From assembly GCF_003334315.1 (NCBI RefSeq), contig NZ_QOWR01000037.1: a stretch of 46,225 bases of DNA; one strand, given 5' to 3'. The notes under the pieces are model-generated. The model was not told the DNA's origin and made no database searches. It worked only from the letters and a program-made list of their open reading frames with translations. This DNA is from Escherichia coli. Its GTDB lineage: Bacteria; Pseudomonadota; Gammaproteobacteria; Enterobacterales; Enterobacteriaceae. The position numbers and the translations under genes are program-made. This document shows, one piece after another, positions 20,943-43,878 of the stretch; within the stretch, counting starts at the first letter, position 1, and each line of letters begins with the position of its first letter.

Positions 20943-21338
20943 ATGTGTGAAGGATATGTTGAAAAACCACTCTACTTGTTAATCGCCGAATGGATGATGG
21001 CTGAAAATCGGTGGGTGATAGCAAGAGAGATCTCTATTCATTTCGATATTGAACACAGCAAGGCGGTTAATACCCTGACTTATATTCTGTCGGAAGTCAC
21101 AGAAATAAGCTGCGAAGTTAAGATGATCCCTAATAAGCTGGAAGGGCGGGGATGCCAGTGTCAGCGACTGGTTAAAGTGGTCGATATCGATGAGCAAATT
21201 TACGCGCGCCTGCGCAATAACAGTCGGGAAAAATTAGTCGGCGTAAGAAAGACACCGCGTATTCCTGCCGTTCCGCTCACGGAACTTAACCGCGAGCAGA
21301 AGTGGCAGATGATGTTGTCAAAGAGTATGCGTCGTTAA
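20943..21338 (+). CDS. caiF: Transcriptional activator of the cai/fix operons, CaiF (131 aa)
   Basis: Conserved start MCEGYVEKPLYLLIAEWMMAENRWVIAREIS; the ORF-track N-terminal extension from 20838 is rejected. Confidence 0.9.
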   Translation: MCEGYVEKPLYLLIAEWMMAENRWVIAREISIHFDIEHSKAVNTLTYILSEVTEISCEVKMIPNKLEGRGCQCQRLVKVVDIDEQIYARLRNNSREKLVGVRKTPRIPAVPLTELNREQKWQMMLSKSMRR

Positions 21339-27182: not shown

Positions 27183-28700
<1,518 letters not shown>

Positions 28701-28947
28701 TTAATTCCACTGTGAAAACGAATATTTATTTTGCGTTCCCGTTTGTTTTATTTTTGTTAACATTTAATATAATTATTATTAACCTCGTGGACGCGTTAAT
28801 GGCTAACTCATAATGGGTATTCAATAAGCTGTATTCTGTGATTGGTATCACATTTTTGTTTCGGGTGAATAGAGGGCGTTTTTTCGTTAATTTTGATTAA
28901 TAATCAGTTTGTTATGCTCTATTGTGAGTAAAAAAATAACATCTGAC

Positions 28948-29074
28948 TTTCAATATTGGTGATCCATAAAACAATATTGAAAATTTCTTTTTGCTACGCC
29001 GTGTTTTCAATATTGGTGAGGAACTTAACAATATTGAAAGTTGGATTTATCTGCGTGTGACATTTTCAATATTG
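28948..29074. promoter_or_regulatory. CaiF-type activator sites: two inverted repeats (TTCAATATTG-N13-CAATATTGAA) plus a third half-site in the caiT/fixA divergent control region
   Basis: Read directly: 28948-28982 and 29006-29039 are near-identical inverted repeats with 13-bp spacers; half-site repeats at 29064-29074. CaiF is known to bind paired inverted repeats in this intergenic region. Confidence 0.6.
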
Positions 29075-29169
29075 GTGATTAAAGTTTTATTTCCAAATTA
29101 AAGGGCGTGATATCTGTAATTAACACCACCGATATGAACGACGTTTCCTTCATGATTTCTGGAGATGCA

Positions 29170-29940
29170 ATGAAGATTATTACTTGCTATAAGTGCGTGC
29201 CTGATGAACAGGATATTGCGGTCAATAATGCTGATGGTTCATTAGACTTCAGCAAAGCCGATGCCAAAATAAGCCAATACGATCTCAACGCTATTGAAGC
29301 GGCTTGCCAGCTAAAGCAACAGGCAGCAGAGGCGCAGGTGACAGCCTTAAGTGTGGGCGGTAAAGCCCTGACCAACGCCAAAGGGCGTAAAGATGTGTTA
29401 TCGCGCGGCCCGGATGAACTGATTGTGGTAATTGATGACCAGTTCGAGCAGGCACTGCCGCAACAAACGGCGAGCGCACTGGCTGCAGCCGCCCAGAAAG
29501 CAGGCTTTGATTTGATCCTCTGTGGCGATGGTTCTTCCGACCTTTATGCCCAGCAGGTTGGTTTGCTGGTAGGCGAAATCCTCAATATTCCGGCAGTTAA
29601 CGGCGTCAGCAAAATTATCTCCCTGACGGCAGATACCCTCACCGTTGAGCGCGAACTGGAAGATGAAACAGAAACGTTAAGCATTCCGCTGCCTGCGGTT
29701 GTTGCTGTTTCCACTGATATCAACTCCCCACAAATTCCTTCGATGAAAGCCATTCTCGGCGCGGCGAAAAAGCCAGTCCAGGTATGGTCGGCGGCGGATA
29801 TCGGTTTTAACGCAGAGGCAGCCTGGTCAGAACAACAGGTTGCCGCGCCGAAACAGCGCGAGCGTCAGCGCATCGTGATTGAAGGCGACGGCGAAGAACA
29901 GATCGCCGCATTTGCTGAAAATCTTCGCAAAGTCATTTAA
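29170..29940 (+). CDS. fixA: Electron-transfer flavoprotein beta-subunit homolog (256 aa)
   Basis: Start [16 protein letters not shown] (ETF beta family); the ORF-track upstream extension from 29107 is rejected. Confidence 0.93.
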
Positions 29941-41523: not shown

Positions 41524-43878
41524 TCACAAAGTGTTTTGATACGGCAGAATGTTCGAACGCAGCATCTCTTGCGTACCCAGACCGTAGTTGGAGCTCAGGC
41601 CGCGAAGTTCGATGTTAAAGCCGATTGCGTTGTCATATACCGCATGTTGTTTATCGTTATCCCAACCGTTCAGCTTCCGCTCGTAACCGACGCGAATTGC
41701 ATAGCAGCAGGAGCTGTATTGCACACCTAACATAGAGTCGGCTTGCTTGTTCGCATTGGTGTCGTAGTAGTAGGCCCCAACAATGGACCAACGATCGGCA
41801 ATTGGCCAGCTGGCGACAGCACCTACCTGCGAAATACCATTCTTATATTGCTCAGCAGTGGAATAGTACTTAGGCAGCGTAGCCTGAATATATTCCGGGC
41901 TGGCGTAACGGTAATTCAGCTGTACCAGACGGTCTTCATCCCGACGGTATTCAATGCTGGAGTTACTGGTCGCTACGTTATCCAGACGTGTATCGTACTG
42001 AATCCCGCCACGCAATCCCCAACGCTCGGAGATACGCCAGTAAGTATCGCCTGCCCACACCAGTGAACCCGTTTTGTCGTCATTCTCCCATGTTATGTTG
42101 TCATCGCCAGTGCGAGACTCCGTGAAATAGTAGATTTGACCAACGGAAATATTAAAACGTTCAACGGCAGCATCATCATATATGCGAGATGTGACACCGG
42201 TCGTCACCTGGTTAGCGGAGGCAATACGGTCAAGACCGCCGTAAGTCCGGTCCCGGAACAGGCCAGAGTAGTCAGATTGCAGCAGAGACGAGTCGTAGTT
42301 ATAGATGTCGCTCTGATCGCGATACGGCACGTACAAATACTGCGCGCGCGGTTCCAGCGTTTGGGTATAACCCGGAGCCAGCATTTCCATATCGCGTTCA
42401 AAGACCATTTTGCCGTCAACTTTGAATTGCGGCATTACGCGGTTAACGGATTCGTCCAGCTTGGTCGTGTTTCTGGAGTTATACCAGTCAAGATTGGTTT
42501 GCTGATAATGGGTTGCCAGCAACTTCGCTTCGGTATTGATGCTGCCCCAGTTATTAGAGAGCGGCAAATTGATGGTCGGTTCCAGGTGAACACGGGTTGC
42601 TTCAGGCATGTCGTCTCTGGTGTTAACAAAGTGCACTGCCTGGCCGTAAATACGCGTATCAAACGGACCAACATCATTCTGGTAGTAATTAACGTCTAAC
42701 TGCGGCTCTGCCGAGTAGCTACTGGTGTTCTGTTCGCTGAAAACCTGGAACTGCTTGGTTGAAACGGTGGCATTGAAGTTTTGCACCGCATAGCCAACGC
42801 TGAATTTTTGCGTTGCGTAGCCGTCAGTACTGGAACCGTACTTGTTATCGAAATCATTGAAGTAGCTAGGATCGCTGACCTTGGTGTAGTCGACGTTGAA
42901 ACGCCACACCTGATCCATGACCCCGGAGTGGTTCCAGTAGAATAACCAACGACGTGAACTGTCATCGTTCGGGTGTTCATCTTCATAGACTTTATCTGAA
43001 GGCAGATAGTCCAGTTCCATCAAGCCAGCGCCCGCCTGGGAGAGGTAGCGGAATTCGTTCTCCCACATGATGTTGCCACGACGATGCATATAATGCGGCG
43101 TGATGGTGGCATCCATATTTGGCGCGATGTTCCAGTAATATGGCAGGTAGAACTCAAAGTAGTTGGTGGTGGTGTACTTGGCGTTCGGGATCAAGAAACC
43201 AGAGCGACGTTTGTCACCCACCGGCAACTGCAAATAGGGGCTATAAAAGATCGGTACCGGACCCACCTTAAAGCGGGCGTTCCAGATCTCCGCAACTTGT
43301 TCTTCGCGGTCATGAATAATTTCGCTACCTACCACGCTCCAGGTGTCAGAACCCGGCAGACAGGAGGTAAAGCTACCGTTATCCAGAATGGTATAGCGGT
43401 TTTCGCCACGTTGTTTCATCAGGTCCGCTTTACCGCGACCCTGGCGACCCACCATCTGGTAATCACCTTCCCAGACGTTGGTATCTTTGGTGTTCAGATT
43501 CGCCCAGCCTTTCGGCCCTTTGAGGATCACCTGGTTATCGTCGTAATGGACATTACCGAGCGCATCAACGGTTCGTACCGGCTCCGGTTGTCCTGGTGCC
43601 TCTTTTTGATGGAGCTGCACTTCGTCGGCCTGCAGACGGCTGTTACCCTGCATGATATCCACGCTGCCAGTAAACACGGCGTCATCCGGGTAGTCCCCTT
43701 TCGCGTGGTCAGCATTGATAGTCACGGGTAAGTCATTGGTATCGCCCTGTACCAGAGGACGGTCATAGCTTGGCACGCCCAACATGCACTGTGAGGCGAG
43801 GTCGGCTGCCAGTCCCTGTTGACTATAAAGGGCGGTGGCAATCATGGTGGCCAGGAGAGTGGGGATACGTTTTTTCAT
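41524..43878 (-). CDS. lptD: LPS-assembly outer-membrane protein LptD (Imp/OstA), 784 aa
   Basis: Signal peptide [24 protein letters not shown]; large beta-barrel protein upstream of surA in the conserved operon. Confidence 0.96.

Follow-up and report, generated by a model that had tools for sequence, protein, structure and literature searches.

The stretch studied here is the control region that the divergent operons caiTABCDE and fixABCX share in E. coli. It lies in a window, i.e., the whole stretch of DNA that was analysed, of 46,225 nucleotides. An earlier note on this DNA had read it as a divergent caiT/fixA control region, and the RefSeq annotation, with caiT on the left and fixA on the right, bears this out. 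A 473-base query over the intergenic stretch finds matches in 5392 of 5426 complete E. coli genomes. The genome that carries these caiT-fixA boxes also encodes CaiF, whose residues 5-61 match the Pfam family CaiF_GrlA PF07180 (E = 2.1e-06). The genes and sites to which we refer are the following.

20943 to 21338, plus strand: caiF (131 aa), the activator recognising the boxes; open reading frame with Pfam CaiF_GrlA PF07180
27183 to 28697, minus strand: caiT, first gene of the cai operon; open reading frame, RefSeq annotation of the identical stretch
28837 to 28852, unstranded: perfect CRP site TGTGATTGGTATCACA, also FNR-like, at -41.5 of the inferred cai start; 0 mismatches to TGTGA-N6-TCACA
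28948 to 28982, unstranded: CaiF site F1, TTTCAATATTG-N13-CAATATTGAAA, a perfect palindrome that matches the published consensus
28958 to 28973 (centre 28965.5), unstranded: weak CRP-like sequence GGTGA-N6-AAACA inside the gap of F1; 3 mismatches to TGTGA-N6-TCACA
29005 to 29039, unstranded: CaiF site F2, TTTCAATATTG-N13-CAATATTGAAA, a perfect palindrome that matches the published consensus
29015 to 29030 (centre 29022.5), unstranded: weak CRP-like sequence GGTGA-N6-TAACA inside the gap of F2; 2 mismatches to TGTGA-N6-TCACA
29057 to 29085, plus strand: best candidate fix promoter of the sigma-70 type, GTGACA (29057-62), 17-bp spacer, TAAAGT (29080-85); consensus match with the top PWM score
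29064 to 29078 (K-12 42297-42311), plus strand: lone third box TTTCAATATTGGTGA, a conserved exact copy of the CaiF left half-site plus GGTGA, without a right half
29085 to 29092, plus strand: conserved block TTTTATTT, 6 nt past the lone box; identity 0.90 over 15 genera
29170 to 29940, plus strand: fixA, first gene of the fix operon; RefSeq annotation and FixA scan

Two substitutions and one additional A separate the window from K-12 MG1655 in the intergenic region, and all boxes are identical. The differences lie at approximately 28921, 28930 and 29094, and the extra A sits in a run of A. A more drastic change is seen in E. coli strain SFE8 (NZ_CP051219.1; L066 2741 onward), where IS26, a bleO gene and a Tn3 fragment are inserted just before F1, at about window position 28938, and displace the fix side of the control region. 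A search of positions 28600-29300 against Rfam gave no match, and the fix leader folds no better than its shuffled versions (z = 0.53).

Repeats of the control region and the published CaiF sites

The 15-mer TTTCAATATTGGTGA occurs three times without mismatch on the plus strand, at 28948-28962, 29005-29019 and 29064-29078. When up to two mismatches are allowed, four matches are found where 0.16 are expected, and none of 100 shuffles yields four; the additional match is a copy with two mismatches on the minus strand (29025-29039). The three exact copies, each of which contains the 11-bp half-site TTTCAATATTG unchanged, form a family of direct repeats whose starts are 57 and 59 bp apart, and within the 46-kb window the 10-mer core TTCAATATTG is found in exact form solely at the five places of the repeats. 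The first two copies belong to the perfect inverted repeats TTTCAATATTG-N13-CAATATTGAAA at 28948-28982 and 29005-29039, an arrangement that did not arise in any shuffle. They share a common unit of 51 nt with 75% identity.

These counts are in good agreement with the three motif copies described in the earlier note, and both of its inverted repeats with 13-bp gaps are indeed perfect; the second begins at 29005 and not at 29006. Its placement of the third half-site immediately before fixA did not hold, since the box ends 92 nt upstream of the ATG at 29170.

The note had also compared the arrangement with known CaiF sites, and this comparison is correct. The CaiF sites F1 and F2 are described as 11-bp inverted repeats 13 bp apart, 5'-TTTCAATATTG-N13-CAATATTGAAA-3' (PMC12083890; PMC3680233; both citing Buchet et al. 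1999). Both palindromes match this consensus. Locus and sequence are identical, the first two copies are these very sites, and the core of the finding is thus already known. In these two papers, F1 and F2 are the only CaiF sites named and the only ones for which CaiF binding is reported; the third copy is absent from the sites named there (PMC12083890, PMC3680233). It differs from F1 and F2 in that it has the left half-site alone and lies inside the core fix promoter. At the position where a right half would be expected after N13, E. coli has TATTTCCAAA, which deviates from CAATATTGAAA in 6 out of 10 positions. This makes the third copy a lone box instead of a full CaiF site.

Promoter frame with CRP-like and FNR-like sites

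A 1998 abstract by Buchet is said to place CRP site 1 at cai -41.5 and sites 2 and 3 at fix -69.5 and -126.5, with the two transcription starts 289 bp apart. We take the CRP-like centre 29022.5 to be the site at fix -69.5 and the centre 28965.5 to be that at fix -126.5. A single pair of starts, 28803 for cai and 29092 for fix, reconciles these four numbers with the sequence. From these mutually consistent numbers we infer a fix start at approximately 29092 (K-12 42325) and a cai start at 28803. Given the extra A and the substitutions relative to K-12, the two starts would be 289 bp apart in the window and 288 bp apart in K-12. The same abstract reportedly states that cai transcription depends on a 50-bp sequence across the fix mRNA start; this segment could not include F2 and would probably include the lone box.

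The predicted fix start agrees with the promoter signals, as GTGACA-17-TAAAGT is the sole sigma-70-type match on the plus strand of the region and likewise points to a start at about 29092. Within this frame, F1 is centred at approximately -127 from the fix start and -162 from the cai start, and F2 at approximately -70 from the fix start. The lone box covers positions -28 to -14 of the inferred fix promoter and thus falls into its 17-bp spacer, in the clade of Escherichia, Citrobacter and Salmonella; CAATATTG is a segment of the lone box, distinct from the GTGACA and TAAAGT hexamers. Further support comes from the FNR-like sites. One of them, GTGATTGGTATCAC (2 mismatches), shares its centre with the perfect CRP site at 28837-28852, and a second one is found at 28887-28900. 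They fall at cai -41.5 and -90.5, which are the positions given for FNR sites in PMC3680233.

The two weak CRP-like sites have the same centres as the F1 and F2 palindromes in which they are nested. Matches to TGTGA-N6-TCACA at this level of mismatch are no more frequent in the whole window than chance would have it (127 found, 157 expected). At both F1 and F2, the tail GGTGA of the 15-mer forms the left half of the CRP-like site nested there, and this is why the repeat unit measures 15 bp and not 11. The arrangement resembles CRP-dependent promoters with tandem upstream sites, with CRP-like sequences at fix -69.5 and -126.5 and a perfect site at cai -41.5, but the fix-side sites are weak and lie nested in the binding sites of a second activator.

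The lone box itself carries the same GGTGA. As a CRP site it was rejected, since GGTGA-N6-TTTTA has 4 mismatches. TGGTGA...TTTT and TAAAGTTT were also considered as sigma-54 or sigma-28 signals and discarded by eye, because the -12 GC and the GCCGATAA partner are missing at the right spacing. GGTGA is nevertheless conserved at the lone box although a CRP site is absent there, and none of the readings considered in this study explains this invariance. One of them takes the 15-mer as a composite element for CaiF together with CRP, or with another factor that reads GGTGA, such that the lone copy would recruit a CaiF-CRP pair through a CRP half-site. The invariant GGTGA and its role as the left half of the CRP-like sites at F1 and F2 would fit such an element. 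The 4 mismatches and the lack of a CRP right half at the lone box argue against it, and CRP is not known to bind single half-sites stably. We consider this composite quite unlikely.

Two other repeated or conserved elements were seen around the promoters. A third conserved block, TGnTAnnT (TGATATCT, 29108-29115), lies in the fix leader, 43-50 nt beyond the first base of the lone box; its TG is kept in 13 out of 15 genera, its TA in 13-14 and its final T in 14. A reading of this block as an extended -10 element was dropped, as the -7 position varies across genera. It is overlapped by one copy (29099-29121) of a direct repeat, TAGAGGGCGTTTTTTCGTTAATT / TAAAGGGCGTGATATCTGTAATT, whose other copy (28870-28892) is located upstream of the cai promoter; the two copies are 229 bp apart and show 74% identity.

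Conservation of the lone box across genera

Variation within Escherichia is uninformative because the whole stretch from F2 to fixA is almost invariant. A FixA scan with one genome per species provided 63 loci. The 45 Enterobacterales loci among them were analysed, giving 46 sequences from at least 15 genera when the window is included. caiT lies divergently upstream of fixA in all analysed loci but one, which ends 394 nt upstream of fixA. Conservation was compared over the fix-proximal half of the intergenic region.

The 14-mer of the lone box, TTCAATATTGGTGA, is exact in 40 of the 46 loci (at least 15 genera), carries one or two substitutions in five and is unrecognisable in one (Entomohabitans). 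Among 15 genus representatives its mean pairwise identity amounts to 0.96, with positions 29065-29078 invariant or nearly so, compared with 0.37 for the 24 nt before the box and 0.50 for the six bases after it. The adjoining block TTTTATTT (29085-29092) again reaches 0.90, and the 14 nt following that block drop to 0.39. The lone box is thus the best-conserved element of the fix-proximal half in at least 15 genera. Its geometry is similarly stable: it is found 102-108 nt from the fixA ATG in 42 of 46 loci, and the distance from the left box of F2 is 59 bp in 39 of 44 loci and 58-61 bp in the others. A right half was sought for the lone box in every genus (46 loci), and the corresponding positions show 4-7 mismatches out of 10 throughout. 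A reading of the box as a decayed full site was given up accordingly, as the right half is found in no genus.

The full CaiF sites vary much more than the lone box. F2 is present in 44 of 46 loci and degenerate in Providencia. F1 occurs in Escherichia, Citrobacter, Salmonella, Phytobacter, Proteus and others, and is absent from several genera. Upstream of the lone box we count two full sites in Escherichia, Citrobacter and Salmonella, one in Pluralibacter, Atlantibacter, Trabulsiella and Cedecea, three in Proteus and none in Serratia sp. H1w. Whatever this number, the lone box is the final unit before fixA. It also keeps its GGTGA, while F1 and F2 drift to GTTGA in some lineages.

The locus of Serratia sp. 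H1w (L036) combines a lone box and a TATTATTT block with no recognisable full CaiF site; here the box is situated 272 nt upstream of fixA, far more distant than in other genera. A scan of the Shewanella cai-fix loci for CaiF boxes found none. In this genus caiT and fixA are divergent as well, 0.57-1.15 kb apart, with several copies of a different palindrome between them, CTAATA-N4-TATTAG / TATTAG...GCTAATATTA (L040 1952-2189, L044 2085-2163), which suggests a different regulator. Without CaiF boxes and with different repeats, Shewanella offers no test of the box architecture.

The earlier note had left room for a vestigial third half-site and had named a lack of conservation in related genomes as evidence against its view. 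Conservation in at least 15 genera and the contrast of 0.96 with 0.37 in the flanks speak for the site and against a vestige. A functionless, decaying remnant of a third tandem F-site unit of about 57-59 bp would account for the missing right half, and the 75% identity of the F1 and F2 units over 51 nt does resemble a tandem duplication. Such a remnant would hardly be exact in 40 of 46 loci next to DNA with identities of 0.37-0.39, nor would it keep a fixed spacing to both F2 and the fixA ATG. The absence of the right half in every genus moreover points to a half-site state that is ancient and maintained. We regard decay as extremely improbable; conservation across many enteric genera indicates that the lone box is probably functional rather than a relic.

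What is conserved might still be promoter DNA, and a hexamer-weight scan for fix promoters bears on this point; its hits are consensus matches, not mapped start sites. GTGAC(A/T)-17-TAnnGT, whose spacer contains the box, is the best promoter in Escherichia, Citrobacter, Salmonella, Pseudocitrobacter and Phytobacter, and is tied for best in Intestinirhabdus. In Pluralibacter, Atlantibacter, Providencia, Trabulsiella, Cedecea and two further genera the recurrent candidate is TTCAAT-17-TATTTT, with the box at -35; variants are TTCAGT in Atlantibacter and TATTAT in one further genus. Outside the Escherichia clade, the hexamers that flank the box as -35 and -10 lack conservation, and the candidate -10 TATTTT is supplied by the TTTTATTT block, 17 bp past the TTCAAT of the lone box. 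The spacer position therefore holds for the consensus-match promoter GTGACA-17-TAAAGT and its six genera, and in the others the box is at -35. In both registers, the lone box lies inside the candidate core promoter. The missing right half is presumably explained by the -10 and start region (TAAAGT, TTTTATTT), which occupies its position.

This situation suggests a CaiF-free explanation, according to which the box is conserved as a -35-like TTCAAT or as a spacer shaped for RNA polymerase, and owes its likeness to a CaiF half-site to duplication. It draws on the TTCAAT found 17 bp before a conserved TATTTT outside the Escherichia clade, on the adjoining TTTTATTT block, which is conserved too and is unlike a CaiF box, and on F1 and F2 being the sole CaiF sites named in PMC12083890 and PMC3680233. 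Yet neither a -35 hexamer nor a spacer needs 14 invariant bases. The Escherichia clade has the same 14-mer in the spacer instead of at -35, where it is equally invariant, and the 14-mer is still identical to the left boxes of F1 and F2 while its flanks are randomised (0.37). Conservation as mere promoter DNA is thus unlikely.

Proposed role of the lone box

With F1 and F2 known, our best explanation is that the lone box serves as a promoter-proximal docking place for CaiF in the fix core promoter and aids activation there; we would put the probability of this reading at roughly 0.6. CaiF binding at the lone box is likely. In each F site a distance of 23 bp separates the two boxes, and a CRP-like site occupies the interval; this suggests that each box docks one CaiF protomer independently. 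If so, one box could function by itself. CaiF occupancy and the mode of activation are the parts that we infer; the sequence, the identity with published sites, the conservation and the geometry are observed.

A CaiF protomer on the lone box would assist RNA polymerase at fix, and CaiF at F2, fixed 59 bp upstream, would help this protomer. For Escherichia, Citrobacter and Salmonella this would place the protomer within the 17-bp spacer; other genera have a box that overlaps the candidate -35. CaiF at the lone box may also be part of a larger CaiF/CRP complex needed for cai. As F1 and F2 are the only sites named in the secondary literature consulted, purified CaiF may not protect the lone box alone.

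The role as a promoter-embedded docking site has a counterpart in GrlA, a recognised CaiF homologue within Pfam CaiF_GrlA. At LEE1 P1 of EHEC/EPEC, GrlA reportedly activates from the stretch that separates -35 from -10, and its target there is not dyad-symmetric (Islam et al. 2011, as described in PMC4730234 and PMC10877973). We confirmed the LEE1 P1 sequence upstream of ler. Since GrlA is reported to bind a promoter spacer, a promoter-embedded CaiF protomer appears the likeliest role of the lone box, which is likewise without a dyad partner and positioned in a spacer. The parallel is one of position only: a comparison by eye of the LEE1 P1 spacer with the CaiF box found agreement at about 6 of 17 positions, and a likeness was not seen. 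There are differences as well. The spacer of LEE1 P1 has a suboptimal length of 18 bp, that of fix measures 17 bp; the fix promoter, unlike LEE1 P1, has upstream CaiF/CRP sites; and binding to LEE1 P1 is reported for GrlA, whereas CaiF occupancy of the lone box is deduced from sequence.

Activators of the MerR family likewise have their target between -35 and -10. They belong to a different protein family, however, and their targets are dyad-symmetric with 19-bp spacers, whereas fix has a single asymmetric box and a 17-bp spacer. The over-long spacer (18-19 bp) of GrlA- and MerR-style activation is thus not found at fix. With its spacer at the optimal 17 bp, untwisting by the activator would not obviously be needed.

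A site across -28 to -14 could, on the other hand, be a brake, since overlap with the core promoter is typical of repressor sites. CaiF would then compete with RNA polymerase or keep the promoter closed until the inducer is present. This is at odds with the reported co-activation of cai and fix by CaiF (PMC12083890 and PMC3680233), with the fix promoter serving as a positive biosensor that depends on CaiF, and with the homologue GrlA, which activates from the spacer position. We hold a repressing role to be very unlikely.

A bolder form of the docking-site reading would turn the hierarchy of the sites around. The lone box, and not F1 and F2, would be the ancestral and indispensable CaiF target, occupied by one protomer inside the fix core promoter in the manner of GrlA at LEE1 P1. 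F1 and F2 would be auxiliaries of variable number, shared with CRP, that feed the lone box and reach the cai promoter. We put this forward tentatively, as a possibility rather doubtful at present. If true, binding within the core promoter would be the mechanism common to the CaiF/GrlA family.

The cai/fix control region is annotated at textbook level, and the main finding, the two palindromes, adds nothing new to it. It is a known system with a modest new detail, namely a conserved third box embedded in the promoter. If CaiF binds this lone box, the accepted two-site model of CaiF action would be incomplete, and carnitine biosensors built on the fix promoter would be tunable through the box. 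The spacer binding of GrlA, the sole mechanistic clue that exists for the family, would then apply to CaiF as well.
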